Sequence record: OR836606.1
Source: Staphylococcus phage LY01
Length of the DNA stretch: 64,000 nucleotides
Reading direction: 5' to 3' (one strand)
Shown: positions 11,592 to 55,030 of the stretch, piece after piece
How the letters are laid out: every line of letters starts with the position of its first letter
Position numbering within the stretch: position 1 is the first letter of the stretch
Notes under the pieces: model-generated
Told to the model about the DNA's origin: nothing
The model's input: the letters and a program-made list of their open reading frames with translations, nothing else
Databases searched by the model: none
Program-made: the position numbers and the translations under genes

Positions 11592-11596
11592 TATTA

Positions 11597-34843: not shown

Positions 34844-35626
34844 TTATATATTATAAATTAAAGTCTTCAGTTTTGCAACAAATTTATCCTGATAAATTGA
34901 AAATTTTAACATAATCAATTCACTATATACATCTGTTTCTGGGGCATAGATATCTATTTTAACTAAAGGACAAATTATTTTATCTTTAGACTTTTTATAT
35001 TTTAACCCTAATAAATACTTTTTAGAAGTTCTAAAATCAATAAGGTAGTCTTTTTCATTATAAATATAATAAGGGTCCTTAACAATAACTTTGTCTTTGG
35101 TAAATATAAATTTAAAGAACTCGGAAGGTTTCCTTTCTTTAATATCTAATAAACTATCATTATCTAATTTAAAATTTAGACTTGGTTTAAAAGAACTAAA
35201 ATAATTAATAGCTTCTAATGAATAATTTAATTCTTCATCTAATCTATCTTCATCAAATTCATCATTATTAATAATAGTTTCTAAATCAGATTCTCTAGTT
35301 ATTTTAATACCACTATTATCAATTTCATTAAAAAATTCAACTTTAATAATTTTATCCCCTTTATTCTTTCTTACTTCAATAAAATCTTCTACATTAAAAA
35401 TGCAATTTTCAACAGGTAAAAGATAATCATAAATTGGATTATCTTCTATAATTTCTACTTCGACTGCATTGGGATTGTCATCTGATTTAGAATAATTTTT
35501 TATAATGTTTTTATTTAAACTAATATACTTACTTCCATCAACAATATTATTGAATAACTTAGATATCTCTTCAAAAGTCATTACTAATTTATTTACTATT
35601 TTTGATTCTTCAATAATAATGGACAT
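34844..35626 (-). CDS. hypothetical protein
   Basis: 260 aa ORF; its start overlaps the stop of the DNA polymerase part-1 gene (ATGA). Confidence 0.4.
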   Translation of the reverse strand: MSIIIEESKIVNKLVMTFEEISKLFNNIVDGSKYISLNKNIIKNYSKSDDNPNAVEVEIIEDNPIYDYLLPVENCIFNVEDFIEVRKNKGDKIIKVEFFNEIDNSGIKITRESDLETIINNDEFDEDRLDEELNYSLEAINYFSSFKPSLNFKLDNDSLLDIKERKPSEFFKFIFTKDKVIVKDPYYIYNEKDYLIDFRTSKKYLLGLKYKKSKDKIICPLVKIDIYAPETDVYSELIMLKFSIYQDKFVAKLKTLIYNI

Positions 35627-36548
35627 TAACCAATTTCCCCCTCTAATTCTTTAATGATATCATCAGAAGCTTCAATAAGAGAAGGTAAACCATGAAACTC
35701 TTGAGCAAAAGCAACACTGTCTTGACTATTAAATTTACTTACGAATTCAGTATTAAAATCATAATTATCTTTATCTTGCTCATATTTAGGTACCGTTATT
35801 CTATCTTTATCAAGAATATTCATCTTACCTACATGTCCTTCAGGTGTTATATTAAATGCTCTAATAATAGATGGATATAGAGAACTTAAGTCAAAGTCAC
35901 AAACATTACTAAATAATCTATTAGATCTAATATCTTTACCTTTAACCAATACGTCTCCATTACGTTCGATTAACATCATATCAGCTACAAATCCGCCACG
36001 AATTTTATCAGCATTAGGATCCGATAATAATTTTGAATGATTATTGCTTAATACATATCCTTGATTTTCAAAGAATACTGAACTACGATTTCTTAAACAA
36101 ATAGTTTTCTTAAGTGCTTTACTAGGTCTTGTTCTAGTCATGTCTACAATAGAGAATAATAGATCAAACATATTAGTGTTATGTTCAATCAATGCAGCTA
36201 ATACAGTATCCTTAATATTATAAAGAATAAATGTATAGTAATCTCTAAAATGTAAATCAGAGATAGAACCTTCATATACATCTTTAGTAACTCCTGCTTC
36301 TTTTTCTCCAATATCATTTAACTTAACTGATTCCAAAGCACCATTGGGCTTATTAATATTTGCATATAACGCTAATTGGTCAATCCAATTAGTATAAGAA
36401 TTAGTCTCAAATGTAGAAGATCTATTAGCCATATCAGTAGCATTTTTATCTAATTTATAATATGCTTTTTTATCTTCAAATTCTTTAGAACAGAAATAAT
36501 CTGCAGGATTTTCTCCATTAGCTCTAATACGTTCAAATATTGCAGGAA
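35626..36548 (-). CDS. family B (T4 gp43-like) DNA polymerase, part 1, exon 3 (polymerase motif A)
   Basis: DFDLSSLYPSIIRAFNITPEG aligns to T4 gp43 DLTSLYPSIIRQVNISPET. The exon begins (K)LDYDFPAIFERI, aligning to T4 IEGFDVPYIMNRV. It ends ...ELEGEIG* with a stop, so the polymerase gene is split here. Confidence 0.75.
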
Positions 36549-36714
36549 AGTCATAATCTAGCTTTTATATTTATTAAATATAAAATAGACTATATCATAC
36601 TCATTAATATGAGTGAATATATTTAGTCGTTGAACAACTCTTATTAAGTTGATGCTGATCATTCTAAAAAGAACGTTCCAGCAATTAATATTCTTTTAAT
36701 GGAACCTATTATCA
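36549..36714 (-). mobile_element. mini group I intron in DNA polymerase gene (minus orientation)
   Basis: Family core elements. Splits the Exo II motif between ...ICTAWN and LDYDFP (T4 ...IFTGWN|IEGFD). Confidence 0.6.
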
Positions 36715-37018
36715 ATTCCATGCAGTACATATGTCAGGCTTACTAATTTCATTAATATAATATAAGAAAGATTTAATTACTTGCATTTCTGTATCTAATT
36801 CATATATCTCAAATTCTAAACCTAAATTTTTACCAATTTCACTATTTTCATTATTATAAATTTCATTTAAGTTTTTAATTAATTTATCTTGATCTTCCAT
36901 AGTTTCTTTATAAGTGTCAGTGTCATATTTAAGAGCAAATGTTAATACTTTTTTCTTACTCCAATCCACTACAGTTATAATATTTATCTCTGCCTCAGCT
37001 TTAAGCGGGTCCGGGACA
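36715..37018 (-). CDS. DNA polymerase part 1, exon 2 (Exo II region)
   Basis: VPDPLKAEAEINIITVVDWSKKKVLTF aligns to T4 FPDPMKAEYEIDAITHYDSIDDRFYVF. PDICTAWN aligns to PAIFTGWN. Confidence 0.7.
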
Positions 37019-37151
37019 ATTTGTATTAAAAGTAATACAAATTAGACTATATCTTCTTAGTAATATATTTAGTCGTTGAACATTAAATTTTTAATGATGC
37101 TGATTATCTTAATAAAGAATTTCCAGCAATTAATATTATTTTATCTGAGCT
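37019..37151 (-). mobile_element. mini group I intron in DNA polymerase gene
   Basis: Family core. The junction ...TTAAAGGT | intron | CCCGGACCC restores LKVPDP in frame. About 133 nt, among the smallest copies. Confidence 0.6.
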
Positions 37152-37642
37152 ACCTTTAACCCAGTTACTTGAGATCCATCAACCTCAATATCGAATAGAC
37201 ATATATCTATACCAACTTTACTGTCTAAATTCTTTTTAATATACTCATTGATATTATAATCTTCTATATTTATATCAGAACCATGAGCATTATTTAATAA
37301 ATGGAAATCTTTTAGTTTTCTATATTCTTGCCAATTACCTGACTTCATAATTCTATCGTATTCTGCTTTATCTTGAGAATTACCAGCTTCTTTAACTACT
37401 GATTTGATAATATCTTTATGCTTACAAATAACAGTTCTTACTTTATCTTTTTCAATAGAACCTACAATTTTATTAGGAGGTAACCAATGTTCATCTTTAG
37501 TTACATAATAATGCATCATAGGATCTGTTATTTCCATATGTTTTTTAGTACCATCCTCTTCTTTAACTACCATTACTACTTTTTCTTTACCAGAAGCAGT
37601 TTCTTTTTTATTTAAATATGTTGATTTAATGAATCTTCCCAT
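37152..37642 (-). CDS. DNA polymerase part 1, exon 1 (N-terminus, Exo I motif)
   Basis: ICLFDIEVDGSQ aligns to T4 ANCDIEVTGDK (Exo I DxE). The annotated tail VAQIK* is intron read-through. Confidence 0.7.
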
Positions 37643-37761
37643 TTATCAATTCCACTCCTTAATTCAAATGTTACTTTGATAATTTAAACGTTATCTAGAA
37701 TTTGTAAAAAATTAAAATATAAATTGCCAAACATTCTAATTTAAGAATGTTTGGCTTATTA

Positions 37762-37917
37762 AATTAAATAAACAATGGTTCTTCCATAAAAGAATCCTCA
37801 GCAGTATCAACTTCATCTTGTTTATAAATTGTCTTATTTAAAAATAATTTAGTGGCTATTGTTGAAGATATAAATAATATAATTGATATAAAAATGATTA
37901 ATAATTTCTTTTTATTC
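37762..37917 (-). CDS. small membrane/secreted protein (51 aa)
   Basis: MNKKKLLIIFISIILFISSTIATKLF... has an N-terminal hydrophobic helix. Below the 60 aa ORF-track cutoff. Confidence 0.35.
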
Positions 37918-37958
37918 ATAGAATTTCATCTCTCCTCTAGATATAAAATAAAGTCTTT

Positions 37959-38156
37959 TTAGAAAAATGTATTTTTAACATTTAGCATTTCAATTCGTTT
38001 ATTAACGATATTAATATCCTTTTGAATTTCTTCTAATTTATCTTTATCAGGGCCATTAGTATGATGTGCTCCATTATTTAATATAATTTGGTAGTGTAAT
38101 TTATTAAATCTTTGAACTAATTTCATTTCATCTAATTTGTTTGTTTTATTTAACAT
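37959..38156 (-). CDS. hypothetical small protein
   Basis: 65 aa ORF upstream of the DNA polymerase gene. Confidence 0.3.
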   Translation of the reverse strand: MLNKTNKLDEMKLVQRFNKLHYQIILNNGAHHTNGPDKDKLEEIQKDINIVNKRIEMLNVKNTFF

Positions 38157-38171
38157 ATTATCATCTTATCC

Positions 38172-40907
38172 TTAATTTACTTTAAATAATACATTTTTGC
38201 CTTGCATCATTTCTTTATCATTAATGTCAATTTTACTTTCATAACCTTTAAGTAAAATTAAATCAATATCAGCGCTATAGAATTCATCGTTATGACTAAT
38301 TAAAAATACCTGTTCAAGACCCATTAACTCAATTTGCCTGTCTATCACATCAACAAATCTTCTTCGGTTATGAGAATCTAATGTACTATCCATTTCATCT
38401 AAGTAAAGAATATTATAATCTTGAGAAACTTTATTTAATAATGATAATGATAAGCTAATATTAGTTAAAGCTGTTTCTCCTTGGGAAGCTTCTTTAATAT
38501 CTTTAAGCTCAGTTCCATTACCTTTATATACATTGATAAAGAAATCTTTATCTGTCAAATCAAAATCAATTTTAAATGAATTATTATAAGCTACTGAAAG
38601 TAATTCATTAGTACTTACTGCAATATCTTTAAGATAGTTAGTAATGAATATTAATGGTATAGAGTCTTTCTTAGGATTTAATGAATCTACCACCATATTA
38701 TATTTCCATAATACTGATTCAATTTCATCAATCTTAGTAATAATAGAATTAACTGCAAAATATTTTTCTTTAGTGGATTCTAAATCATTTTTCTTCATAG
38801 TTAAATTATCTTTAATAGATTGAATCTTATTATCTGCTTTCTGATTAAGTTCATACAAATTGCTTAGTTTTGAAAGATCTTTATCAATATCATTAACTAT
38901 ATCATTTTTATCTTTAATTTTTGATTTAATTTCTTCAGATTTCTCTGTTAAATTAATAAATTCATTAATAATATTTAAGTTAGTGATTGCTTTTTCTTTA
39001 CGACCATTAAGGTAATTAAGATTCTCAGAAATTTCATTATTTTTATTTTTAATTTCTTCAATTTGTTTAATTAAATCTTCTTTATCTTCTTTATATTGAT
39101 CTAATATTTTCTTATTAGAATAATCTTCTTTAAGAGCATTTTCTTTTCTTTCTAATTCAATAGTCAATTTATCTCTATTAGTTTCATTAGTACGAATTTC
39201 ATTTGTCTTTTCAATTAATGAATTAAGACTATTTAGTTCACTAGAGAATGTATTGCCATTAGTAAATATTTCTTCAATACTATCAATATTAATTATTTCA
39301 AACCCAATATATTTAATTAAACTATTTCTACTAGTAAGTATATCATTGAATTTACGTGATAAGTCAATATGATTAGATAATAGTTTATTATCTTTTTCTA
39401 ATTCTTGATTATTTTTATAAAGTTGATTACCTTTATTTTCTAATTCAGAAATTGAATCAAATTCATTATCTTTAAAATCAGCTACTAAAGGAACAAATAC
39501 ACATTCATTATAGTGTTCATGATCTTTTTGTTCCAATATTTTTAATAAGTCTGATTTACCTTTAATTTGATTAAGCTTAGTATTAATTTCATTAAATTCA
39601 TTCTGGTTCATAGAAATTTTTTCATTATTACCTTTAATTTCTCTTTCAAAATCTCCATGAATAGAATTATATTTGAATTCATTATCATTAATGAATTCTT
39701 TAAAGTTATTTATTTTAGAAATTAAATCATTTACATATAATCTTAATGAATCTTCTTTAATATTATCTTTAATCTGTAATCCGAATTCACTTACAAAAGA
39801 CCCTCTAGAAATATCTACATCCTCTTTAATACCTTCTAAATCTTCTTTATACCCTTCAAGAATTGAATCAATTTCATCAGAAGCATCATAATCTTCATTA
39901 AACTTAATAGCATTCATACGAGATTCTATTTTAGATTTTCTACTAATTAAATCATCTAATTTATCTTGATTATTTTCTTTATCTTTTTCAACAGAAGTTA
40001 ACTCGTTATTAGTGTTATTTAATATAGTATCTATTTTATCTTTTTTATCATTAGCAGATTCAATAGTATATTTATTTAAATTCTCATTATCTTCTTTTAA
40101 TTTTCTTTCTTTTTCTAATTTTTGATTAAGTTCATTAATTTCATTAATTAATTGATTTTTATATTCAGTTGGATGAATCTCTTTGTATTTATCTTCCATA
40201 ATAGAGTTCATCTTAGTTTCATGAGTTGTTTTATCTTTATTAGCTTCATCAAGTTCATCCTGTAATTGATCAATTAAAGTTTCTAAATTCTCTTTTTCTT
40301 TTTTAATTTCATCAAATTCTTTATATTTATCTAAATCAAATCTAAGTGATTTTAAATCTTTAGTAATAACTCTTAATTTCTCATTAGCTACTTTATAAGC
40401 TTCTAAGTATCTATCAATGTTAGGTACAAATTTATTAATATATGATTTACGATCACCTGTAGTATAATCGATAAAGTTTGATACATTATCGCCTAAACGT
40501 CCTACAGTAAAGTATTCTTTAGATACACCTAATTCTTTATCTACTATTTCATTAAATAATTTAATGCCACCATTTTCATTGAGTTCTTCACCATTCTTCT
40601 TAATGAATGATTTATTTTGAGAACTATTTTTTCCATAGTGATGTTTAATTTCATAAAGATCATTATCTTTAATATAATCAATTTCTTTTAATCCTTTTTC
40701 ATTTTCTATGATAATATCTCTTCTTTGGTCATTAGATTCTCTATAAGGACTTAATTGAGAGAGTATGACAGTTTTTGAGCTTCCATTATCTCCAAGAAGC
40801 ATTATCATATTATTTTTACTTTTACTAAAATCAATTTCAACTTCTTTTAATCCCATACCAGCATAAATGCCGATAAAATTCTTTAACTTTAATCTTTTAA
40901 TCTTCAT
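38172..40907 (-). CDS. SbcC/Rad50-like recombination ATPase (T4 gp46-like)
   Basis: N-terminal Walker A (LLGDNGSSKT), very long coiled coil, C-terminal signature/Walker B/D-loop (LYLDEMDSTLD...VFLISHNDEF). Confidence 0.75.
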   Translation of the reverse strand: MKIKRLKLKNFIGIYAGMGLKEVEIDFSKSKNNMIMLLGDNGSSKTVILSQLSPYRESNDQRRDIIIENEKGLKEIDYIKDNDLYEIKHHYGKNSSQNKSFIKKNGEELNENGGIKLFNEIVDKELGVSKEYFTVGRLGDNVSNFIDYTTGDRKSYINKFVPNIDRYLEAYKVANEKLRVITKDLKSLRFDLDKYKEFDEIKKEKENLETLIDQLQDELDEANKDKTTHETKMNSIMEDKYKEIHPTEYKNQLINEINELNQKLEKERKLKEDNENLNKYTIESANDKKDKIDTILNNTNNELTSVEKDKENNQDKLDDLISRKSKIESRMNAIKFNEDYDASDEIDSILEGYKEDLEGIKEDVDISRGSFVSEFGLQIKDNIKEDSLRLYVNDLISKINNFKEFINDNEFKYNSIHGDFEREIKGNNEKISMNQNEFNEINTKLNQIKGKSDLLKILEQKDHEHYNECVFVPLVADFKDNEFDSISELENKGNQLYKNNQELEKDNKLLSNHIDLSRKFNDILTSRNSLIKYIGFEIINIDSIEEIFTNGNTFSSELNSLNSLIEKTNEIRTNETNRDKLTIELERKENALKEDYSNKKILDQYKEDKEDLIKQIEEIKNKNNEISENLNYLNGRKEKAITNLNIINEFINLTEKSEEIKSKIKDKNDIVNDIDKDLSKLSNLYELNQKADNKIQSIKDNLTMKKNDLESTKEKYFAVNSIITKIDEIESVLWKYNMVVDSLNPKKDSIPLIFITNYLKDIAVSTNELLSVAYNNSFKIDFDLTDKDFFINVYKGNGTELKDIKEASQGETALTNISLSLSLLNKVSQDYNILYLDEMDSTLDSHNRRRFVDVIDRQIELMGLEQVFLISHNDEFYSADIDLILLKGYESKIDINDKEMMQGKNVLFKVN

Positions 40908-40963: not shown

Positions 40964-41764
40964 TTATTTAAAATTATTTTTCACTAAATATTCTCTAACA
41001 AATTTTTCATCGGTAATTTCTTCAAATATATCATCTAAATCATCTTCAAAAATATTTATTTTATAACTATGATGATTATTATTAATAACATCATAATCAT
41101 AAACATTTAGCATATCTAAAAAAGAGGCTTTAGAAAAGAAAAATTCAATATTAAAATGATGTCTTAATGATTTTAATAAAATAAGATAATTATTAAAGAT
41201 ATCTTTAATTAAATTCTTAAAATCATCATGGTGCTTTATATTTTGATCTTGAATTTCATTTAATAATTTTTCAAGATTGTCAACTAATATCATTCGTTTT
41301 ATTTCTATTTCATCTTCTTCGTTTAAAATATCTTTTATAATACTATTAAATAAAATTTTATCAATTTTATTTTTTATAGGTTTGATTGTAAATAGTATTT
41401 TATCATTAACACTATTTTTATCTATACTAAAAATAGATTTAGTAGAATCTCTTTTAAATTTAAAATCTGCAATAGTTATAAGTGTTTCAAATGAATTTTT
41501 ATTATTAACATTGTAAAGAACAGGAGGTAGACATCTTGGTAAAAATTTTAAATTGCCTTTAATTGCATTATCTTCTTTTTTATAATGAACATCTATTGCA
41601 AGAGTTTCATATGAATCTTCTTCAGTCTGATTAATTATTTTTTCAGCTATTATTAAAGGTAAATAGTCATATAAAAATGAACCTCTATTATTCTTATCAA
41701 CTTCAAATAATTCATCATTTATTTTACATAAGAAATATTTTTTATCACTTTTCATTGCACCCAT
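40964..41764 (-). CDS. NNFK-tail paralog family member
   Basis: N-terminus MGAMKSDKKYFLCKINDELFEV; C-terminus HFNIEFF...IFEEITDEKFVREYLVKNNFK. Confidence 0.6.
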   Translation of the reverse strand: MGAMKSDKKYFLCKINDELFEVDKNNRGSFLYDYLPLIIAEKIINQTEEDSYETLAIDVHYKKEDNAIKGNLKFLPRCLPPVLYNVNNKNSFETLITIADFKFKRDSTKSIFSIDKNSVNDKILFTIKPIKNKIDKILFNSIIKDILNEEDEIEIKRMILVDNLEKLLNEIQDQNIKHHDDFKNLIKDIFNNYLILLKSLRHHFNIEFFFSKASFLDMLNVYDYDVINNNHHSYKINIFEDDLDDIFEEITDEKFVREYLVKNNFK

Positions 41765-41778
41765 TATATTGATCTCCT

Positions 41779-42558
41779 TTATTTAAAATTATTTTTCACT
41801 AAATATTCTTTAATAACTTTCTCATCTGTAATTTCTTCAAATACTCCAGATATTTTATATTCATCAAACAAATTATAATATTCATCATCTATATCATCAT
41901 TATTTCTTTTATCATTCTCTGGTATGTGCGAGAAACAACTATCTGATACAAAGAATTCTATATCAAAATGTGATCGGATTTGTGATAAAATTTCTAATAT
42001 ATAACTATTTACTTCGGTTAATATTTGGTATAAATCTTTATTATTTTTAAAATTAGTTTCTTTACTATTATTATAATCTGATATTAGATTTTCAGGACTT
42101 TCTATAGGTAAATTAAAAGGTATTTTTAAGATATTATCATTATCTAATATATTACCAATGACATTATTGAAAAATATTGAAGTTACATCTGGATTATATA
42201 TGGGTTCAATTCTAATTTTCAAACAATTTTTATTTTCTATTTTTTCATTGAATATAATATCAAAATCAATATTAAGTATATTTATTCCTTCTTTATTACC
42301 AACCTTATATTCTAAAAATGGAAAAATATTGCCAACTGATATAATTCCTGACCATAAATTATTTCCATTACTATCTTCACCCACAATCTCTTCAGAAAAT
42401 ATATCTATTTCTTCACTTTTTATTTGTAAATTAGGAAGTAAATAAGGTAGATATAAATGATCTTCATTTATACCATATCTAGATAAGTTATTAACTATAA
42501 ATAACTCATCTGTCATTTTACTTAAAAAATATGTTTTATCACTTTTATTTATACTCAT
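41779..42558 (-). CDS. NNFK-tail paralog family member
   Basis: MSINKSDKTYFLSKMTDELFIV ... HFDIEFF ... VFEEITDEKVIKEYLVKNNFK. Confidence 0.6.
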   Translation of the reverse strand: MSINKSDKTYFLSKMTDELFIVNNLSRYGINEDHLYLPYLLPNLQIKSEEIDIFSEEIVGEDSNGNNLWSGIISVGNIFPFLEYKVGNKEGINILNIDFDIIFNEKIENKNCLKIRIEPIYNPDVTSIFFNNVIGNILDNDNILKIPFNLPIESPENLISDYNNSKETNFKNNKDLYQILTEVNSYILEILSQIRSHFDIEFFVSDSCFSHIPENDKRNNDDIDDEYYNLFDEYKISGVFEEITDEKVIKEYLVKNNFK

Positions 42559-42574
42559 TAAATTGATCCCTCTT

Positions 42575-43279
42575 TTATTTAAAATTATTTTTCACTAAGT
42601 ATTTTTTAATAACTTTTTCATCTTTAATTTCTTCAAATAATCCAGATTCATTAAGTAAAAATTTATAATCAAATATAGAAAATGATGTGTCTTCGTGTTT
42701 TTCCATTTTTGTATATATTCCTGTCATAAAATATGCTAACTCTGATTTCCTAACATTTAATTTTAAATTTCCATAACTCATTAAATCCATAATATAATTT
42801 AAAAGAGTTTTATTAAATTCTTTGACTAGTAATTCTAATCCTTCAAAATTTTCAATAGTGTGCCTTATAGTATCACTTAAGATTAAGTATTTTCCATCTT
42901 CTCTATTTTCTATTTCGTAAATAAAAGATTCTTCTGGAAAATCTTTTTTAAATATTCCTCCATCTAGAATAGAATTAAATTCTAAATTAAAATCTGTTTT
43001 GCAAATTTTTAAATTTCTTACATAATCATTACTTATTATATTAGAATTTTGTTTGATTTTAACTACTTTATCATTAAAAAGAGAATAGGTTAAAGAAAGT
43101 TCAGATCGGTAATTAAGATATCCAGGGTCTTTATTCAAATTCTCATTTTTATTAATATATTTCATACACATTTTAGTAAATATTTCAGTCAATTTATCTA
43201 TACGAAAGTCAGTTCTATCTATATCGAAGTGAAGTATTTCTCCATCTAATTTATATCTATAGTAATTATTATATTCCAT
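42575..43279 (-). CDS. NNFK-tail paralog family member
   Basis: C-terminus LFEEIKDEKVIKKYLVKNNFK. Confidence 0.6.
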   Translation of the reverse strand: MEYNNYYRYKLDGEILHFDIDRTDFRIDKLTEIFTKMCMKYINKNENLNKDPGYLNYRSELSLTYSLFNDKVVKIKQNSNIISNDYVRNLKICKTDFNLEFNSILDGGIFKKDFPEESFIYEIENREDGKYLILSDTIRHTIENFEGLELLVKEFNKTLLNYIMDLMSYGNLKLNVRKSELAYFMTGIYTKMEKHEDTSFSIFDYKFLLNESGLFEEIKDEKVIKKYLVKNNFK

Positions 43280-43300
43280 TATGAAAATCCTTTCTTTATA

Positions 43301-44158
43301 TTATTTAAATCCTTTTCTAACTTTAAACGCTTTCATTTCTTTTTCTGTTTTAATTTCTTTAAATAAATTATTTTCATCACTTTCTATTAAATCTAATATA
43401 TTAACTAAACCATAATTTTCATTATAAAAATCAATATAAAATTCTATATCATCTTTATACATATATTTAATTTCATAAAGAGACATTAATATACTAAGAT
43501 TATTCTGGTATAATATGATAAAGAATAAATCCTTAAAATCTTCTATAAATTTAATAATAGGATTTTTATCAAATGCTGATATTGGAAAACTTAAATCCAT
43601 AAATGGTTCATTGCCATATTTGATCTCATATAAATTCTTTTCAAACAATTCAATATTATTTACAAGAGCTCTCATTTTTTCATTTATTCCTTCATTAACC
43701 AAATTATTTTCATTTACTAAATCATTAGTAATTACATTGAAATATTCTTTATATAATGAATTATCAAAATGAAAATCTAATTTAAATTCTCCACTTTCAA
43801 TAGTTTCAATTTTATTCATTCTAGCAATATTAAAATTAATATGAAAATTAGTATTAAATTTTTTAAGAGTATCATTTTTATTATGTGTATTTCTAAAATA
43901 AATATCGCTATCAATTTCTTTATAATGAAAAATCATATAATCTTCTTCTTTAGAAATATTATCTATGAAAGATTTAGCATATCCTTTGCTACTTAAAAGA
44001 TTATTAATATCCATAGTAGTTAATACGTATGCAATATATTCATATCGGTTAAGATAATTTCTATCAATTTCAATTAATTCATCTCTCTCTTTATCTATAA
44101 AATATTTCATATTAGGAAAATCCTTTCTTAACTTTAAATTTTTTAATTTCTTTCTCAT
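43301..44158 (-). CDS. NNFK-tail paralog family member (divergent)
   Basis: C-terminus LFKEIKTEKEMKAFKVRKGFK; N-terminus overlaps the previous member by 47 nt. Confidence 0.55.
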   Translation of the reverse strand: MRKKLKNLKLRKDFPNMKYFIDKERDELIEIDRNYLNRYEYIAYVLTTMDINNLLSSKGYAKSFIDNISKEEDYMIFHYKEIDSDIYFRNTHNKNDTLKKFNTNFHINFNIARMNKIETIESGEFKLDFHFDNSLYKEYFNVITNDLVNENNLVNEGINEKMRALVNNIELFEKNLYEIKYGNEPFMDLSFPISAFDKNPIIKFIEDFKDLFFIILYQNNLSILMSLYEIKYMYKDDIEFYIDFYNENYGLVNILDLIESDENNLFKEIKTEKEMKAFKVRKGFK

Positions 44159-44888
44159 CAGTTATTTCTCTAAAATATGCATCAACATCAAAATCATTTA
44201 AACTAATATACTTATCATATTCTTTTTCAAAACTAAAATCTTTTTCTTTTTCCCTTTCTTTACCACTAAAATTCCAATCTGTTGCAATAAGAAATTCAAT
44301 ATCTGAATGATCTTGTATCTGATCTAGCAATTCAAAAATTAATTTATTTGTAGTAGTAAACATCTTGTGTAAATCTTCCTTGAGTTCTAAAGGTCTTTTT
44401 CCCTTTTGTATATGACTTTTAAAATATTTTAAAAAGCGAATCATAACTTCTTCATTAAAGTCATGCGGTAAATCTAGTTCACCATTATCATCAAATATAC
44501 CAGATCTTTTACTAAATAATCTCTTCCCTATTTCACTATTATTATATAAAGGAATAGCTTTAAACTTAATATAATTATCGTCTTCTTCATTTAGACTAAA
44601 GCGTATTATAGCGTATATAAGAAGTTCCATTTTATTTTTCTTACCTTTATATTTGTATTTAACTTTGGGGAAAGCATTAAAATTTATTCTAAGACCAACT
44701 AAACCATTGTCATCATGTTCTTCATGAGATATAAGAAAACTCTCATTATAATTTATTTGCATTGTAGTGAATAGCTCACTTAAAACTTTCCACTTAAAGT
44801 CAAAATAGAGTGTTTCATTTTCATTGAAAGTTAATTCTATAAATTCATCTTTCGATTTACTAATGTAGTATTTGTTAATTTTCTCCAT
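44112..44888 (-). CDS. NNFK-tail paralog family member (divergent)
   Basis: HSDIEFL ... YFREITDEKEIKKFKVKKGFS. Confidence 0.55.
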   Translation of the reverse strand: MEKINKYYISKSKDEFIELTFNENETLYFDFKWKVLSELFTTMQINYNESFLISHEEHDDNGLVGLRINFNAFPKVKYKYKGKKNKMELLIYAIIRFSLNEEDDNYIKFKAIPLYNNSEIGKRLFSKRSGIFDDNGELDLPHDFNEEVMIRFLKYFKSHIQKGKRPLELKEDLHKMFTTTNKLIFELLDQIQDHSDIEFLIATDWNFSGKEREKEKDFSFEKEYDKYISLNDFDVDAYFREITDEKEIKKFKVKKGFS

Positions 44889-44992
44889 TTACTTAACTCC
44901 TTTTATTATAATAATCCCAATACTAATTTAATAGTATTGGGATAACATTTTTATAATATATATTTATTCTAATTTTCAGAATTAGGCGATAC

Positions 44993-45370
44993 TTAACTAT
45001 TTTCCATTTCTTCACGTTGTCTTTTTAATCTATCAAGAACTTCTTTTTCTTCTACATTTTGATTTAATTCTGGTTCAATTAATAATTCTTTTTCTTTCAT
45101 ATCTTCTAATATATTTAATCCTTTTCCAAACTCTGGAGATTCATTAGGAGGATTAAATCTATTGTGTTTATTATCATAGAAATTTAATTTAACTAGATCT
45201 GAATTAGGTTCAATAACTACCTCAGCTTCTATGAATAAAATATCATAAGGGTCAGTGACACGTTTTCTATATAGCAAAGCTTTAGTATAAGAATCTTTTT
45301 TAAATCCATAATCTCTTAATTCTTGTTTAATATTTTCTTTACTTAAGTTTAATTTGTATTCTGATAACAT
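44993..45370 (-). CDS. hypothetical protein
   Basis: 125 aa ORF interleaved in the paralog array. Confidence 0.4.
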   Translation of the reverse strand: MLSEYKLNLSKENIKQELRDYGFKKDSYTKALLYRKRVTDPYDILFIEAEVVIEPNSDLVKLNFYDNKHNRFNPPNESPEFGKGLNILEDMKEKELLIEPELNQNVEEKEVLDRLKRQREEMENS

Positions 45371-45519
45371 TACTTATTGCACTCCTTTTCATTGTATTCA
45401 TGAACTTCATTAAGATGTCTATGGTCATGATAAATAAACATGCAATCTTCTAATTTAGGTTCATATCTCTTTTTAGTTAATAATTCATATAATCTTTTTA
45501 ACATGATAAACCTCCTTCC

Positions 45520-45861
45520 TTAAAATGATACGTGTAGAAATATATAAAAATCATTCTTAACTCTATCAATTTTATATATTTCTGACATAAGAGCATGATA
45601 ATAAGATAAATCATAATAAAAGTTATCTTCTTTTAAGTCATCAATCATTAGATCTCTTAAAGTTTCATTATCTATAACAATAATATCATCATGCGGAACT
45701 TTTGATTTAAACTTTAATGTTTTATAAAGTTCTTTAGGTGTATTAAAATATAATTCAAATAAATGGTTATCTTCTTTTTTATATCGTTCTTGATCAAGAT
45801 ACCATTGTAAATCTCTTTGTTTACTTTTATTAATTCCGTATATACTTAAACTAAATTCCAT
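45520..45861 (-). CDS. hypothetical protein
   Basis: 113 aa ORF. Confidence 0.4.
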   Translation of the reverse strand: MEFSLSIYGINKSKQRDLQWYLDQERYKKEDNHLFELYFNTPKELYKTLKFKSKVPHDDIIVIDNETLRDLMIDDLKEDNFYYDLSYYHALMSEIYKIDRVKNDFYIFLHVSF

Positions 45862-45915
45862 ATTCTCTCCTCCGATATAATATAGCTCCGTAATACATTA
45901 TAGAGATAAAATTAA

Positions 45916-46695
45916 TTAAAATTCAGCTTTTTGATATAAGTTTCCGAATTCATCTTTAACTATATCATCTCTGCCCTCAACTTCTTCAAATACTAAATCT
46001 CTGGTCATGGTAAATAATTCTGGGTATTCTTCTTGAAGTTCATCTTCTTCAATAATATTCATATCCATATCAGCAACTACTAATTCATATTCTTCAGGAG
46101 AATCCCCTAAAACAAAGAATTGTAGTGAACCTTTATAGACTTTTAATATAGAAGATAAATCTTGTTGATCTAATTCATTAATTTCTTGACTCAATTCTTC
46201 TTTTCGATCCAATTCTTTATTAATAGATTTTTCTTCTTCATCCAATTGTAATAATTTTGCGTCTAATTCTTCTCTAAAATCATTGTCTTCATCATTTACT
46301 TCTTCAGGTTCCATCATACTGTCTAGAATGTCTTTATTAGACATTGTATTAAGTTGATTAAGTACATTCTTAGCAAGCTCTTTATAATTATCTTCTGATT
46401 CATCATCAATAGACATTTTCTGAGCTTTCATAGTTAAGTCTATAATATCTTTCTTAACATTTTTCATTTGCATAATAGTATCTTTAATTTCTTTCTCTAC
46501 ACTAATAATGTTAGCTTCCATATTAGATACAAATGTATGTTTAGGATATTTCAGATTCTTAGTTAGATCCATTATACGATGTTCTAATTGAACTTCTTTC
46601 TTTTCCATTTTATCCTTAAATTTTACTAGCATTTTATATTCTTCCATCATATCATTAATTTGTGATATCAAATCAATTTCAACATTATCGGACAT
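45916..46695 (-). CDS. hypothetical acidic coiled-coil protein
   Basis: 259 aa ORF. Confidence 0.4.
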   Translation of the reverse strand: MSDNVEIDLISQINDMMEEYKMLVKFKDKMEKKEVQLEHRIMDLTKNLKYPKHTFVSNMEANIISVEKEIKDTIMQMKNVKKDIIDLTMKAQKMSIDDESEDNYKELAKNVLNQLNTMSNKDILDSMMEPEEVNDEDNDFREELDAKLLQLDEEEKSINKELDRKEELSQEINELDQQDLSSILKVYKGSLQFFVLGDSPEEYELVVADMDMNIIEEDELQEEYPELFTMTRDLVFEEVEGRDDIVKDEFGNLYQKAEF

Positions 46696-46751
46696 TTATT
46701 TTTTCAACTCACTTCCATCATATTAATTAATATAAAAGAAAGTTAATTAAA

Positions 46752-47390
46752 TTATTTAAAATTTTCTTTAACCGCTAACTTTTTTATTTCTTTTTCATCT
46801 TCTACCTTTTCTAAAATCTCATAAAGTTCATTAAAAGTATATTCATTTAAAATTAAATCTTTTCTAAATTCTTGACTGGTTATGAAATCGACATTATCTT
46901 TTTTTGAATTAACTGTGTATACTAATAAACTTATATCTTTTTCGTTATTAAAAAGATTAACTATATTTGAAATTAATTCGTATTCTATATTATTTATATT
47001 TTCAATTTGAATATAAGTTACATATGAAAATACATTACCGCTAATTAAAGTTTTAAAAGGTCCTATATTTTTACATTCTTTATCAATATTACGTAATAAT
47101 GAAAATACAAAATATAATTCAAAACAACCATTACCTTTATCAGTTATATCTATATAAAAACCTCTAGTTCTATAATAGGTATTTTTGTCCTTTATCAAAA
47201 TACCATCATTTCTTAACGAAAATGAGCCATTTTCATCTATCTTATTTTTAATATTGTTAGAATTAAATAACTCTTTAAATAATTCAATATTTAATTCTTC
47301 TTTACTAGTATCTTTTTTAACGGAAACTATGTCACCTCTATCATCAATCTTATAAAAATCATGATTTTTGATATATTGATTTATACTCAT
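46752..47390 (-). CDS. NNFK-tail paralog family member
   Basis: C-terminus LYEILEKVEDEKEIKKLAVKENFK. Confidence 0.55.
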   Translation of the reverse strand: MSINQYIKNHDFYKIDDRGDIVSVKKDTSKEELNIELFKELFNSNNIKNKIDENGSFSLRNDGILIKDKNTYYRTRGFYIDITDKGNGCFELYFVFSLLRNIDKECKNIGPFKTLISGNVFSYVTYIQIENINNIEYELISNIVNLFNNEKDISLLVYTVNSKKDNVDFITSQEFRKDLILNEYTFNELYEILEKVEDEKEIKKLAVKENFK

Positions 47391-47406
47391 TAAGTTATTC
47401 TCCTTT

Positions 47407-48015
47407 TTATTTAAAGTTTTCTTTAGTTAGATATTTTTTAATTTCTTTTTCGTCTTCTAACTCTCTAAAATATGCATGAGGTTCAAATATATCAATACCA
47501 TTTATAAAGATTTTAATATTTCCATTATTTTCTTCTTTAAGCATTTCATCTAGCAAATTAGATAATTTATCTAAATCATTTTCATGTTCATCATAACCTA
47601 TAATATTTTCTTTATGAAAATTTTTCATCATGATTATACTGACACCGAGTGAATTCTTATCAACTTCTAAAAGTTCTTTATCCGCATGTCTACTAATAAA
47701 AGCCCTTAATTGCAAAGTTACTTTATTATCTTTAATTTTTGCATATGAGAATTCTAAGAATTCTACTGGAAGATTCTTTCTAACTTCATTATACATATTG
47801 CTGAAATATATATTTTCACTATCAATTAATTCAAAGAGTAAACTTAGATTATAATAAAGGTCATCATTTAAACTATAGTAATCTAAATTTCTTTCTATTA
47901 ATTTTTTATAATAGAGTTTATTTATCTTATCTTTAATATCACTTTCATCTTTACTAATTATAAAAAGCTCATTAATATCTTTATTATAATAGAATTTATT
48001 TTCTTTTAAAATCAT
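47407..48015 (-). CDS. NNFK-tail paralog family member
   Basis: C-terminus YFRELEDEKEIKKYLTKENFK. Confidence 0.55.
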   Translation of the reverse strand: MILKENKFYYNKDINELFIISKDESDIKDKINKLYYKKLIERNLDYYSLNDDLYYNLSLLFELIDSENIYFSNMYNEVRKNLPVEFLEFSYAKIKDNKVTLQLRAFISRHADKELLEVDKNSLGVSIIMMKNFHKENIIGYDEHENDLDKLSNLLDEMLKEENNGNIKIFINGIDIFEPHAYFRELEDEKEIKKYLTKENFK

Positions 48016-51551: not shown

Positions 51552-52863
51552 TGAATCTATTTTTTAATTCTTTTATTTTATCTTCATGAAATTTAGTTTG
51601 TCTAATTTTAAAAGGTTTAGTGCTGTCAAGAAAATCTGTTGAATGAATATTTTCTTCATCAACTAAAGTCATATATTTAGGATTAGTTGTATTTAGTGCA
51701 TCATATAAATCAAATTTATTCTTTTTCATAAGATTGTATTTATCTTGAGTCATTAAAACTGAATAATAAATATCCTTTAATTTAACTGATCTTCTGTAAT
51801 TAGAAGGATCTTGTAAACCAGGTGTTTCTTTAGTATTAGTTATAATTCCTTTACCATGATACTCCTTACCAATATAATAAACTAAATAAATGAACCCCAT
51901 ATTATCTTTAACGCTAAATAATCTATATCCATCTTTATTTTCATCAAATACCTCATAAATATTCCAATCATTAATTACTCTACGCTTAGCATAATAGGGT
52001 CTATTTTCTGGTTTTAAATGATATGGTTGTCCTCCAATACTAAGTCGTTTCTCATATTCTTCTTTTTCAAGTTGTTTAATATAAGTTTTACTAAATTTAT
52101 CCAAAACAATTGAATGTTCTTCATCAAAACTTTCATAATTATAATTAAAAGGTAATACAATCCTAAAAGTTTTACTTGTACATCTATATAAAACTTTACT
52201 TAGATTTTTTTCATTTAATTTAATTTGGATTTCATTAGTTTCTTCATTATAATTAATATCTTCATCATTTATAGAATATAGACTTTTAGTAATTACATTA
52301 AATGTAATTGGATTAACGTCTTCAATCATATTAATAATGATTAAATTTCTTTCATAATCTATATATGCTAACATGTTATACATATCTAAGTTAAGTGAAT
52401 CAGGGTCATACTTATCCTTTGTTTTATGAGGATCTCTAGCCCATACCTCTAATTCTCCCGCATTTTTAATTTTTAATTTAGAATTATCTTTTAATGTGAT
52501 ATCTTTAAGAAAATCTTTACCAATATGATTTCTACCAATCTCATTTAATAATATTGCTAGTTGATGTTCAAATAACTTAGGTATATCTTTCTCTAAAGTA
52601 AAGAAATAACAATCATTATTAAAATTATTTTTATTGCTTTTACGATATTCCTTTAATAAATCAACTAACTCTTTATCTTCATTAAATCGAATAATATTAT
52701 CAATAATAAATCTATTTTGATCAAATCTATAGAACCATGTCCCATTATCATCCATTTTTCTTAACTTAGCCGGTATTTTTCTACCATTTTTTCTGTATAA
52801 ATTCAAATTTTTACTAAATACATCTGACTGTTTTGCCATAGCATTAATACACTCCATTTTCAT
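51523..52863 (-). CDS. hypothetical protein
   Basis: 446 aa ORF. Confidence 0.4.
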   Translation of the reverse strand: MKMECINAMAKQSDVFSKNLNLYRKNGRKIPAKLRKMDDNGTWFYRFDQNRFIIDNIIRFNEDKELVDLLKEYRKSNKNNFNNDCYFFTLEKDIPKLFEHQLAILLNEIGRNHIGKDFLKDITLKDNSKLKIKNAGELEVWARDPHKTKDKYDPDSLNLDMYNMLAYIDYERNLIIINMIEDVNPITFNVITKSLYSINDEDINYNEETNEIQIKLNEKNLSKVLYRCTSKTFRIVLPFNYNYESFDEEHSIVLDKFSKTYIKQLEKEEYEKRLSIGGQPYHLKPENRPYYAKRRVINDWNIYEVFDENKDGYRLFSVKDNMGFIYLVYYIGKEYHGKGIITNTKETPGLQDPSNYRRSVKLKDIYYSVLMTQDKYNLMKKNKFDLYDALNTTNPKYMTLVDEENIHSTDFLDSTKPFKIRQTKFHEDKIKELKNRFIEDYDKGEF

Positions 52864-53050
52864 TTATTTAAAAATGTATCTTAAAAAAGATACATTTCTA
52901 TTACAATTTTATAATATATATTTTAACATAAATTAAAAATTTATGCAAGAAATTTTATATGAAAGTTGATAAATTTTTCTAATTATATAAAATCAATTAT
53001 TTTATCTGAATACATACCAATATTTTCCAATATGTATCCAGATAAATTAT

Positions 53051-53751
53051 TTAGAATTTAATCATATTAGATACAAATGAACTATTTGAAGATTCCAATA
53101 CTCTAACACCAATAGATTCAATAATATCTTTACCTGGTTTAATATGATCTTCAATCATACTATCATAGTCAATAAAAGGTCTAAACTCTTCAGGAATTGT
53201 ATTACCTTCAACTGCAATTACATTTAAACCGTTTTTAACTAAACTTTCATTCTTAAATACTTCTCTAAATCTATCTAAAGTATCTTCATCAGTTATCTTA
53301 TTTTTAATATCTCCAAATGTACTAATATTCAATTTAACTGCTAATATCTTAGCAGGTAATGCTATTTCTTTTTCTGGGAACATTATATTCCATGCTAAAG
53401 CAGCTCTATATGCCATTTGAGAATAAGGGTCTTTATATACCTCAGCATTATTAGCTTTAAACGGTTTTAAGAATTCGATTTCTCCATTATCTAATGATTT
53501 CTTAATCATTTCTTCTATATCTTTAAATTTACGTATTATCTTAATACGATCTACACCGGTTTTATTTTCTAAAATATCTTTTTGTAATATTTCAGTAAAT
53601 AGTTCTCTAATACGTTTATTAGTATTAACTTTTCTAATAGCCATACCTTTAACATCTAAATCTGGAGGTTGAATTAAATTACCCTCTTGTTGAATTACTG
53701 ATGATGCATAAGTTTTCTTTTTATCAGTTGTTAATTGTTTATCAAGTAAAA
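53051..53751 (-). CDS. DNA polymerase part 2, C-terminal exon
   Basis: The frame is open upstream of the annotated Met. ...DKKKTYASSVIQQEGNLIQPPDLDVKGMAIRKVNTNKRIRELFTEILQKDIL aligns to T4 gp43 ...[51 protein letters not shown]. Confidence 0.6.
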
Positions 53752-53893
53752 CATTTTTATTAGCTTTATTAAATTAATAAAGATTAGACTATATCTTATA
53801 CTTATATTAAGTACATTTATATTTAGTCGTTGAACTTAATTTCTTAAGCTGCTGATTTAATTAATGAACTATTCCAGCAATTAATAAATTTAT
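53752..53893 (-). mobile_element. mini group I intron (minus orientation) in DNA polymerase part 2
   Basis: Family core elements; 3' end ...GCTAATAAAAATG. Confidence 0.55.
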
Positions 53894-54161
53894 CTTTCTG
53901 TATATCGCTATACAACGGAGCATTAACTTGATAATACTCATTTTTCATTGATATTAAACCTAAATGTTCTTCCTCTAATCCTACATCTTTACAGAATCTA
54001 TAGTAAGACAATTCTAATAATTTAGTTATTTGATAGTTAATAATAGATATATTACTTACACGTTGTTCTAATTTATCCTCTAAACCATTCTCTGCAATTG
54101 GAAAATCTTCAGGTTTTAAAGATTTAAATTTTTCGTATAACGGATCTAAGTGAACAAAGTT
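53894..54161 (-). CDS. DNA polymerase part 2 exon (after motif C)
   Basis: NFVHLDPLYEKF... follows DTDS directly. T4 gp43: DTDSVYVCVD. The annotated ATG is the ATG of the intron 3' end ATAAATG. Confidence 0.6.
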
Positions 54162-54315
54162 CATTTATGTTAGCTGTATCAAATATAATACAGATCAGAC
54201 TATATCTTCTTTAGAAATATATTTAGTCGTTGAACTTAATTTCTTAAGCTGCTGATTTGATTAATAAATCATTCCAGCAATTAATATTTTTTATTGACAG
54301 CAATTTTTTATCACA
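54162..54315 (-). mobile_element. mini group I intron inserted right after polymerase motif C (DTDS|)
   Basis: Family core elements. Read-through tail ...NCWNDLLIKSAA of the upstream ORF is intron-encoded; the same tail occurs on ORF 53844..54164. Confidence 0.6.
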
Positions 54316-54888
54316 ACTGTCAGTATCTATAGTTAATACGCTTCTACGTTTCTTGTAATTCATTCTATACATTCTATTATAATCTTGATAATTATATATA
54401 ACCCAATCTTTTAATATTTCAAATAATTCATCTAATAATGGAATCATATCTTCAGGAGGATCATTTGGATCTAAGAAATCTTCTCTGCCAGTCATTTTAC
54501 TAATTTTATTATCAAATATATCGGTATGATCAATTAACCCAAATAAATTATTTTTGAAATATACTTTATTTTTATCTTCTTGACTTAATTTACTAAATAC
54601 TTCTTCTAACTTAAGAAAATCTTCTTCACTATAATCTTCTTCAACATTAGAAACTAAACCTTCTAAAATTTCTTTATCAGTTGGAATTGATTTTATCTTA
54701 ATATCATGATCTTCATATTTTTCACTAATTATTCTTAATATATAATGATATATTTCATCAATCTTCATGAAAAAGATTTTACCGCCAATAAATCTTTCTA
54801 AAGCTATCGCTGAAGTAGTTACAATATCAACTGCTATATAAATTCGTGAATTTAATTTAATTAATTCGAATTTATTCGACTTCGTCAT
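54316..54888 (-). CDS. DNA polymerase part 2 exon containing motif C (LTIDTDS)
   Basis: RSVLTIDTDS aligns to T4 gp43 FIAAGDTDS. The true 5' end of the exon is the IStron 3' splice site near 54889 and is not determined. Confidence 0.55.
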
Positions 54889-55030
54889 TACTTTTACTTA
54901 CTTTGCACTTTAAGTTTTTCGTTATAAACTACTTCAACATAAAGTGTCAACCAAAGCAGAGGTTAAAGCTCTTAAGTCATCACATTTGGACATTCAAGAG
55001 AATTTAAATCTAGTTAGCCTGCCCAACAAA
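54889..55030 (-). ncRNA. putative omega-RNA / IStron right end of TnpB-2
   Basis: GC-enriched segment ...gctgctgtcaacctcaaaatgtacggtaagcgttttgttgggcaggctaac... overlaps the tnpB 3' end and extends beyond it. Confidence 0.4.

Follow-up and report, generated by a model that had tools for sequence, protein, structure and literature searches.

Evidence for a two-subunit family B replicase encoded by distant, intron-interrupted genes in Staphylococcus phage LY01

We analyzed a stretch of 64,000 nucleotides from Staphylococcus phage LY01 (sequence record OR836606.1; hereafter the window), in which the replicative family B DNA polymerase, as read from the sequence, is encoded by two separate genes, with the break falling between motif A and motif B. 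Taken as a whole, the evidence makes it very probable that this is a two-subunit family B replicase whose ancestrally split genes, located ~15 kb apart, have been colonized by four group I introns and an IStron. Unless another genome is named, the counts and coordinates given below refer to the 64-kb window, which is part of the genome, and both polymerase genes lie on its minus strand.

By its sequence relationships, the window belongs to a Staphylococcus jumbo phage of the AR9/PBS1-related group. In both polymerase regions it is ~93-95% identical at the DNA level to the Staphylococcus jumbo phages Madawaska, MarsHill, PALS_2, S6, and DC4, and ~80% identical to Machias, PB50, AH12, and SA1; the G+C content of the window is ~25%. 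The records of these relatives annotate both loci, as "DNA polymerase exonuclease subunit" and "DNA polymerase catalytic subunit", and those of Madawaska and Machias present the genes as joined exons predicted by alignment to AR9 proteins.

Two interrupted genes encode the exonuclease and catalytic subunits

Intron boundaries were set by empty-site comparison, with Madawaska used for the exonuclease gene and the uninterrupted S6 gene for the catalytic gene. The resulting gene models, which are also based on the spliced open reading frames (ORFs), are as follows.

35626-37642, minus strand: exonuclease subunit gene, three exons, 572 amino acids (aa) when spliced; own ribosome-binding site (RBS), start, and stop; Exo I-III and motif A
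37159-37642, minus strand: exonuclease subunit exon 1, 3' end ...ACTGGGT within the Exo I region (Madawaska empty-site alignment, spliced ORF)
36714-37016, minus strand: exonuclease subunit exon 2, 3' end ...TGGAATT within Exo II (Madawaska alignment, spliced ORF)
35626-36557, minus strand: exonuclease subunit exon 3, with the second half of Exo II, Exo III, motif A, and the stop (spliced ORF, RB69 alignment)
53051-57234, minus strand: catalytic subunit gene, four exons, 644 aa when spliced; motifs B and C, KxY, and thumb
56742-57234, minus strand: catalytic subunit exon 1, with the fingers and motif B (S6 alignment, spliced ORF)
54316-54830, minus strand: catalytic subunit exon 2, ending in ...GAT ACT GAC AGT, which encodes motif C (DTDS) (S6 alignment, spliced ORF)
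53936-54161, minus strand: catalytic subunit exon 3 (S6 alignment, spliced ORF)
53051-53751, minus strand: catalytic subunit exon 4, with KKKTYA, the thumb, and the stop (Pfam, S6 alignment, spliced ORF)

Without splicing, the exonuclease gene is broken into the minus-strand ORFs 37642-37136, 36969-36712, and 36432-35626, and the catalytic gene into the minus-strand ORFs 57234-56725, 54888-54244, 54164-53844, and 53644-53051. Removal of two insertions from the former yields a single 572-aa ORF that ends in ...ELEGEIG followed by the stop. Removal of three insertions from the latter yields a 644-aa ORF, equal in length to the uninterrupted S6 gene (644 codons); an RBS and an ATG of its own precede the N-terminus MSNQDNKYERKRAI... 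(MSNQDNKYERK...). Both restored ORFs are colinear with their intron-free S6 counterparts. All of the conserved motifs whose patterns were tested are present across the two subunits. For the exonuclease, the patterns DxE (Exo I), Nx2-3F/YD (Exo II), and Yx3D (Exo III) are matched in the 572-aa protein by FDIEVD (residue 150), AWNYYDFP (260), and YNIKD (375), respectively. For the polymerase, DxxSLYPS (motif A) is matched by DFDLSSLYPS at residue 483 of the same protein, while Kx3NSxYG (motif B) and DTDS (motif C) are matched in the 644-aa protein by KILANSYYG (134) and TIDTDS (331); the latter protein also contains KKKTYA (422).

These gene models bear out most of the original prediction, which had placed the polymerase in two genes at 37642-35626 and 57234-53051, about 15 kb apart. 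The gap between them is 15,408 bp. The empty-site comparison likewise supports the two introns that had been proposed for the first part and the IStron plus two mini introns proposed for the second, and the spliced ORFs agree with the assignment of Exo I, Exo II, motif A, and the ...ELEGEIG terminus to the first part and of a separate initiating Met and motifs B and C to the second.

Both proteins are well conserved. The 572-aa protein is 96.5% identical to its S6 counterpart and the 644-aa protein is 97% identical to its PALS_2 homologue, and the published gene table of DC4 lists uninterrupted polymerase genes of 573 aa and 644 aa (PMC10638138). Relative to S6, the catalytic gene has undergone 83 synonymous and 23 nonsynonymous codon changes, indicating that it is under purifying selection. 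This ratio is relevant to the possibility that the interrupted genes are decaying pseudogene fragments and that the phage is replicated by another polymerase, of phage or host origin, encoded outside the window. A naive gene caller does return seven ORF fragments with in-frame stops, and the window is only 64 kb of genome. However, removing the insertions restores full-length frames in which all of the catalytic motifs are intact, every insertion has splice-competent features, and in the complete genomes of the relatives there is one locus for each polymerase half and no other match to either (among the matches listed). A second copy of either half was also not found in the window. We consider such decay very improbable and favor two functional, interrupted genes.

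The two proteins have different affinities. In a phmmer search of PDB sequences, the 572-aa protein matched the RB69/T4 gp43 structures (E 1.6e-10), with residues 144-389 aligned to RB69 107-337 (the exonuclease domain) and residues 478-533 aligned to RB69 404-459 (motif A), and it is 25-27% identical to the gp43 of more than 1500 T4-like phages. A Pfam scan of its single exons gave weak, sub-threshold matches; it was the spliced protein and the PDB search that gave the match with gp43. The gene is also homologous to the Madawaska "DNA polymerase exonuclease subunit" gene and to AR9 g132.

The spliced catalytic subunit matched PF20286 (divDNApol, Divergent Family B DNA polymerase) with a score of 182.1 bits (cut-off 25.7, E 2e-53), and this subunit alone covers positions ~71-704 of the 705-position profile when exon-level and spliced matches are taken together. 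It also matched PF00136 with 41.6 bits (cut-off 23, E 1e-10). Among PDB sequences, it aligned weakly, via motif B, to archaeal PolB and Pol zeta, and no match with RB69/T4 gp43 was found in this search. Its only phage relatives are AR9/PBS1 (36% identity) and the phiKZ-like jumbo phages (20-25%). The designation "T4-like" in the original prediction is thus appropriate for the exonuclease half, given its gp43 match, and not for the catalytic half, which falls in the PF20286 clade, a divergent family B clade described by Iyer et al. (PMC7824862). Neither does the whole correspond to a single-chain T4-like gp43, since the catalytic half is without an RB69/T4 match in PDB and the gene is not contiguous.

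Within the second exon of the catalytic gene (54830-54316; residues ~184-330), the sequence FFMKIDE occupies the usual place of motif C in the alignment with archaeal PolB. The true DTDS lies ~150 residues beyond it. Because of this late position, the palm of the divergent clade seems to hold a large insertion between motifs B and C.

The split and the spacing of the two genes are ancestral

From the RB69 alignment, the break between the two subunits would lie near the palm-to-fingers junction, at about RB69 460-470, with extra residues on either side. The position proposed originally, equivalent to T4 residues ~480-490, was therefore approximately right, although the exact position is not fixable by sequence alone.

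The same two-gene split is found in AR9, in which g132 (108407-110071) encodes the exonuclease and a partial catalytic domain and g152 (125147-127072) encodes the catalytic subunit. The gene order of AR9 is also that of the window: portal, g132, g139 (SbcC), g145 (virion RNA polymerase beta'-N), g151 (5'(3')-deoxyribonucleotidase), and g152. Furthermore, the spacing of the polymerase genes is nearly the same (15.1 kb in AR9 versus 15.4 kb in the window), and the AR9 catalytic subunit is 36% identical to that of the window over 88% of its length. The two phages differ in that both polymerase genes of AR9 are uninterrupted, whereas those of the window contain five insertions; previous work has also reported that the AR9 DNA polymerase is intact (bioRxiv 10.1101/2020.12.14.422802).

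Separate parts are seen in the phiKZ-like phages as well, which infect Gram-negative hosts and whose catalytic subunits are 20-25% identical to that of the window. In the Pseudomonas phage EL, gp021 is a catalytic-only protein of 700 aa, and in the Erwinia phage Asesino, gp61 is an exonuclease-only protein of 596 aa with no adjoining catalytic gene. Judging from these comparisons, the split and the ~15-kb spacing, with SbcC and beta'-N in between, are inherited from an ancestor common with AR9, and the split itself is older than that ancestor because the phiKZ-like phages also have it. The question raised by the original prediction, of whether the separation is ancestral, can thus be answered in the affirmative from the gene order and spacing of AR9 and the split in EL and Asesino; the wide separation noted there does exist, but other genomes have it too.

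A "split family B DNA polymerase" has previously been listed as a core gene of this jumbo-phage group in reviews (PMC7598289, PMC7824862), and for MarsHill, Madawaska, and Machias, Korn et al. described introns in the "DNA polymerase subunits" (bioRxiv 10.1101/2020.12.14.422802). Consequently, for these phages neither the split of the polymerase, nor its wide spacing, nor its interruption by introns is new. Our sequence comparison confirms as a trait of the clade that the exonuclease and catalytic parts are separate, non-adjacent genes, as seen in the window, AR9, Madawaska, EL, and Asesino.

An alternative is that the halves are joined into one polymerase, either by trans-splicing through split intron halves or by a split intein. 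Such machinery exists in this lineage: mobile introns are abundant in the window, with 15 mini-intron cores (see below), and an intein has been reported in gyrA of relatives (bioRxiv 10.1101/2020.12.14.422802). The ends of the two genes argue otherwise. The stop of the first part overlaps the ATG of the next gene, the second part has its own RBS and ATG, and there is no intron core motif near 35626 or upstream of 57234. Neither the C-terminus of the first part (...ELEGEIG) nor the N-terminus of the second (MSNQDNKYERK...) contains a Cys/Ser/Thr-initiated N-intein block or a C-intein block of HN followed by C, S, or T, and the genes are conserved as separate genes in AR9, EL, and Asesino. We find joining of the halves hardly credible. 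Instead, because both genes are equipped with a separate RBS, ATG, and stop and there are no intron halves or intein blocks at the ends, we infer two polypeptides that would assemble after translation, by analogy with gp43A and gp43B of Aeromonas phage 25 (PMC2988022).

Several features were observed around the two genes. The exonuclease stop overlaps, as TAATG (35626-35630), the ATG of the minus-strand ORF 35626-34844, which encodes a conserved protein of 260 aa, an arrangement suggestive of translational coupling. The gene that immediately follows g132 in AR9 carries the annotation DnaQ-like 3'-5' exonuclease; the 260-aa ORF of the window had no Pfam match. A terminator hairpin lies just upstream of the exonuclease gene, where Madawaska also annotates a terminator, and the Madawaska record annotates an RBS for both polymerase genes. 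The AR9 early-promoter core (AAATATATATTAT) was sought upstream of both polymerase genes and gave no clear match. Between SbcC and the beta'-N gene, at 40964-48015 on the minus strand, the window contains a run of ~ten ORFs of 200-285 aa, which corresponds to the paralog array of the original prediction. The two of these that were scanned had no Pfam match, and AR9 holds different small genes at this place.

Four short insertions have the features of compact group I introns

On the basis of sequence and predicted structure, the four ORF-less insertions of 142-184 nt in the polymerase genes are very compact group I introns.

37017-37158, minus strand: mini group I intron 1, 142 nt; P1 CUGGGU/GCUCAG with U·G; ends in G; vestigial P8 (Madawaska empty site)
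36558-36713, minus strand: mini group I intron 2, 156 nt; P1 GGAAUU/GGUUCC; ends in G (common with Madawaska, 97% identity)
54162-54315, minus strand: mini group I intron B, 154 nt, right after motif C; P1 GACAGU/GCUGUC with U·G; ends in G; vestigial P8 (S6 alignment)
53752-53935, minus strand: mini group I intron C, 184 nt, at codon 411; P1 GAGU/GCUC; extra P2 hairpin; ends in G (S6 alignment)

In all four, the 5' exon ends in a U that is paired with G in P1, a hairpin whose other strand lies in the first 10-25 nt of the intron, and the last base of the intron is G. The P (UUAAUUGCUGG), Q (AAUCAGCA), R (GUUCAACGACUAAAU), and S (GAUAUAGUC) elements correspond to the classical group I consensus. 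The window contains 15 occurrences of the core motif, all of them on the coding strand, compared with ~1 expected by chance. When the alignment of these 15 copies was folded with RNAalifold, P4, P5, P7, and P9 were predicted. Over P3, P4, P5, P7, and P9, with the crossing P3 included, 97.9% of the cells in the 15 copies are paired, and 16 pairs show double changes; P3, whose strand crosses P7, is 100% paired, with five of its six pairs covarying. This result was reached by none of 500 shuffles, and in slid controls the value was 26-46%. Every copy has a P6 hairpin, with differing sequences, while a P8 hairpin is present in 11 of the 15 and vestigial in four.

The possibility that the short insertions do not splice themselves, but instead separate several small polypeptides or are removed or bypassed in another way (protein-dependent splicing, translational bypass), draws on three of their properties: the group I model of Rfam misses them, they are much shorter than a typical group I intron, and two of them have no stable P8. 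On the other hand, the internal exons start in the middle of a codon and have no start codon or RBS at their 5' ends, and the insertions bear the signature of a group I ribozyme: P, Q, R, and S elements, a P1 with a U·G pair, a G as the last base, and a strongly covarying P3/P7 pseudoknot. In addition, for introns of the related phage AR9, mature mRNAs are reported to have been determined experimentally (bioRxiv 10.1101/2020.12.14.422802). We regard this alternative as improbable and favor group I splicing of the four insertions.

P8 is normally a core helix of group I introns. In the eleven copies that have it, P8 is a hairpin of 5-8 bp; in its place, the P8-poor copies, at 3357, 37077, 48251, and 54231 (minus strand), contain ~11-12 nt, TTAC(AT)TAAGAAG or TTTCTAAAGAAG, and these copies are nonetheless located in essential genes. 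A length of 142-184 nt is far below the typical size of a group I intron. If they are self-splicing, the copies lacking P8 would be, to our knowledge, among the smallest natural group I ribozymes; a literature search for the smallest known group I intron yielded no useful figure.

Eleven further mini-intron cores (AACGACTAAAT), also on the coding strand, were located outside the polymerase genes by matches with the core motif:

3357 and 3536, minus strand: mini-intron cores
6655, 9647, 9955, 10164, and 10745, plus strand: mini-intron cores
48251, 48541, 48711, and 49459, minus strand: mini-intron cores

Relatives annotate the regions of these eleven cores as genes for the beta and beta' subunits of the virion RNA polymerase. 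The best relatives cover just 56-62% of window positions 1-12000, indicating that more insertions are present there than in any compared genome.

A scan of the genomes of relatives found 9-26 copies of the mini-intron family per genome in Madawaska, MarsHill, Machias, AH12, and PB50; the family was not found in S6, PALS_2, DC4, or SA1. Rfam was reported to give no introns in DC4 (PMC10638138), and by our scan, DC4 does appear to be truly without this family. The 16-nt R element GTTCAACGACTAAATA was observed in at least 120 stretches of IMG/VR viral contigs, many of them from genomes of 200-400 kb, so that group I introns with such a core appear to be common in uncultivated large phages. For the same reason, the R element is not specific for the family, and we rejected it as a means of counting family members outside the window.

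A TnpB-encoding IStron lies within the catalytic gene

The 1911-nt insertion at codon 164 of the catalytic gene is assigned, from its sequence features, to the group B (IS607-type) IStrons.

54831-56741, minus strand: IStron, 1911 nt, at codon 164 of the catalytic gene (S6 alignment; boundaries ambiguous by 2 nt)
56213-56741, minus strand: ribozyme part of the IStron, ~530 nt (P, Q, R, and S elements)
56597-56578, minus strand: P element, GUGAAUUGCUUG
56440-56425, minus strand: Q element, AAUCUAGCAGC
56405-56387, minus strand: R element, GUUCAACGACUA
56281-56267, minus strand: S element, AUGAUAUAGUC
55010-56158, minus strand: TnpB ORF, 382 aa (HTH_OrfB_IS605 3e-21, OrfB_IS605 (RuvC) 2e-19, Cas12f1-like TNB 2e-13)
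54841-54863, minus strand: 3' arm of an AU-rich inverted repeat of 23-24 nt (partner 56236-56213)

The order of its parts, from 5' to 3', is the group I ribozyme, the TnpB ORF, and 180 nt to the 3' junction; an omega-RNA would be expected in this 3' region. Removal of the element restores the catalytic reading frame (in comparison with S6). The AU-rich inverted repeat could form a long-range stem that would loop out the TnpB ORF and bring the 3' splice site beside the ribozyme. Within the ribozyme part, positions 56602-56302 show 78% identity with an ORF-less intron at 49168-48879 and ~79% identity with an element of Listeria phage LPJP1, and the best phage homologues of the TnpB are those of LPJP1 (42%) and Machias (38%).

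The 2-nt ambiguity of the boundaries arises from an AG at both junctions. The 5' flank is G-rich (...AGUGGAG; ...UAUAGUGG(AG); ...UAUAGUGGAG), the intron-free S6/Madawaska allele reads ...TATAGTGGTGTTGATATTGTAAC... at this site, and no reading of the junctions lets the 5' exon end in U. A canonical P1 with a U·G pair was sought and not found, the best pairing being GGAG/CUCC ~95 nt downstream, and splicing after G, as in group B, was accepted instead. Such splicing has been shown for BcISt1 of Bacillus cereus (PMC4227781). The junction AG was also considered as the crossover core of a serine recombinase, but a match of this length (1 in 16) is indistinguishable from chance.

TnpA is absent, since the interval that separates the ribozyme from tnpB (56213-56158) is too short for an ORF, and the element is probably not autonomous for transposition. 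Group B IStrons, which are known from Clostridium botulinum phages among others, have been described as having GG-containing targets and long inverted repeats rich in AU; they have often lost ORF A, and many are ORF B-only (Tourasse et al., PMC4227781). Because ORF B-only elements are common, the missing TnpA marks a non-autonomous copy rather than excluding the element from the family.

Two related elements were observed elsewhere in the window. At ~6550-8210 on the plus strand, a second IStron consists of a mini-type ribozyme (core at 6655, P1 GGAU/GUCC near 6550) followed by a TnpB ORF at 6804-8006, which encodes 400 aa, is 31% identical to the TnpB of the polymerase gene, and has Pfam E values of 1e-15 to 2e-16. 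Its 3' region of ~200 nt is richer in G+C, an omega-RNA would be expected there, and its 3' boundary is approximate. At ~49208-48824 on the minus strand, in a region that relatives annotate as virion RNA polymerase beta', there is a larger ORF-less group I intron of ~385 nt with a canonical P1 (GGAGU/GCUCC); this is the intron that is 78% identical to the ribozyme part of the polymerase IStron. By sequence, it resembles either an IStron that lacks the IS part or the free intron that gave rise to the IStron.

Since the family member with a 5' splice site near 6550 retains the TnpB ORF (6804-8006) downstream of a mini ribozyme, one can imagine that the ORF-less mini introns are an unusually minimized, actively proliferating group I lineage, derived from IStrons in the manner of miniature inverted-repeat transposable elements and spread in trans by TnpB/TnpA-assisted homing instead of by classical homing endonucleases. 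We offer this as a speculation that is rather unlikely to be correct.

Intron content differs among close relatives

The catalytic gene was aligned with those of five relatives: S6, SA1, Madawaska, Machias, and PB50. At codon 164, the window alone has an insertion, the IStron. Intron B, after motif C, is absent from all five, while Machias and PB50 contain a different intron, of 179 nt, ~9 nt upstream in motif C. The codon-411 site is filled in Madawaska and Machias as well as in the window, and the catalytic genes of S6, DC4, and SA1 are intron-free. Among the matches listed, no relative covers more than 54% of the catalytic gene region. In the exonuclease gene, neither Madawaska nor the intron-free S6 gene has the 142-nt intron of the Exo I region, and PALS_2 and Machias have HNH endonuclease ORFs within this gene region instead. 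Intron 2 and intron C are common to the window and Madawaska.

Because presence and absence differ between close relatives, we conclude that recent insertions into conserved catalytic motifs have taken place. This turnover is the usual pattern for mobile introns that target conserved motifs of phage polymerase genes (PMC3984707). What is new here are the site of the IStron, the intron at motif C, and the intron in the Exo I region, three insertions without a counterpart in the compared relatives. The small size of the mini introns, their lack of an Rfam match, and the link to a TnpB-bearing copy are only mildly novel.

A model for expression of the two-subunit polymerase

In the model that we propose, both pre-mRNAs would need to be spliced before translation. 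The 572-aa subunit would then provide the N-terminal domain, the 3'-5' exonuclease domain, and the beginning of the palm, with motif A, and the 644-aa subunit would provide the fingers with motif B, the remainder of the palm with motif C, and the thumb. By analogy with characterized elements, the IStron may splice, produce a guide RNA, and home. TnpB, together with a guide encoded at the 3' end, could cut intron-free alleles in co-infecting relatives and so drive homing; the target would consist of a sequence like a target-adjacent motif (TAM), AGTGG, and then GTTGATATTGTAAC....

Several points weigh against this interpretation. Splicing and heterodimer assembly in this phage are themselves deduced from sequence. 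The exonuclease half lies under the Pfam gathering cut-off for both PF03104 and PF00136, with scores of 16.6 bits for PF00136 (spliced protein) and 16.6 bits for PF03104 (exon 2 alone). As for the introns, no match with an Rfam group I intron was obtained in the whole window at the gathering score, and at E<=10 there was no intron match in 35000-38200 or 52800-57500, the regions that contain the four short insertions and the ribozyme of the IStron. Mini introns 1 and B, half of those in the polymerase genes, are without a stable P8. At its 5' splice site, the IStron has no U·G pair and no convincing P1, and its 2-nt ambiguity is unresolvable from sequence. Finally, only 64 kb of the genome is visible, and a second polymerase might lie elsewhere. 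Because the evidence from structure and covariation is strong, we read the Rfam result as a failure of library sensitivity.

Implications

A standard gene caller reports seven polymerase fragments and a "transposase" in these regions, which should instead be annotated as two genes, one of three exons and one of four. The ancient two-subunit replicase of the AR9/phiKZ-related jumbo phages would thus appear to tolerate heavy colonization by selfish RNAs inside its catalytic motifs, those colonized here being the Exo I region, Exo II, and motif C. Among phages that are ~95% identical, intron content turns over fast. Introns as compact as these could interest ribozyme engineers, and an RNA-guided TnpB nuclease within an essential phage gene is a natural case of conflict between an intron and a nuclease. 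The known workings of such polymerases and introns are left unchanged by these results.

Comparison with known systems

In the Aeromonas phages 25 and 44RR, the T4-type family B polymerase is likewise made as two polypeptides, 43A and 43B, and gp43A and gp43B of phage 25 have been shown to co-purify and to have polymerase activity (PMC2988022). The arrangements differ in spacing and in age. The 43A and 43B cistrons are adjacent, with a short untranslated spacer or a seg endonuclease gene between them, whereas the halves in the window are 15 kb apart, and the 43A/43B split is recent within the T4-like phages, whereas that of the window is ancient.

The IStron of the catalytic gene has the same organization, a 5' group I ribozyme and then ORF B (TnpB), as BcISt1 and as the CboIStron and CbISt3-4 elements of C. 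botulinum and its phages c-st and D-1873. As in known group B IStrons, the target contains GG, the 5' exon does not end in U, and there is an AU-rich inverted repeat. For the IS607-type CboIStron, Zedaveinyte et al. found that the TAM is TGGG, that TnpB with its omega-RNA cuts vacant sites, and that the structure of the omega-RNA competes with splicing (bioRxiv 10.1101/2023.11.20.567912). Unlike the known group B elements, the IStron described here interrupts an essential gene, that of the polymerase, in a Staphylococcus jumbo phage; no phage homologue exceeds 42% identity with its TnpB, and its ribozyme is missed by the Rfam group I model. The closest element, in the Listeria jumbo phage LPJP1, differs in that it retains a resolvase-type TnpA (an ORF with a Resolvase domain) next to TnpB.

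Group I introns are likewise found at conserved motifs of the polymerase genes of phages SPO1 and Bastille (PMC3984707), and the SPO1, Bastille, and Twort-type IA2 ribozymes have the same core of P, Q, R, and S elements as the mini introns. The SPO1 and Bastille introns are larger, and that of Bastille encodes a homing endonuclease (PMC3984707), whereas the four mini introns of the window are ORF-less and only 142-184 nt long.

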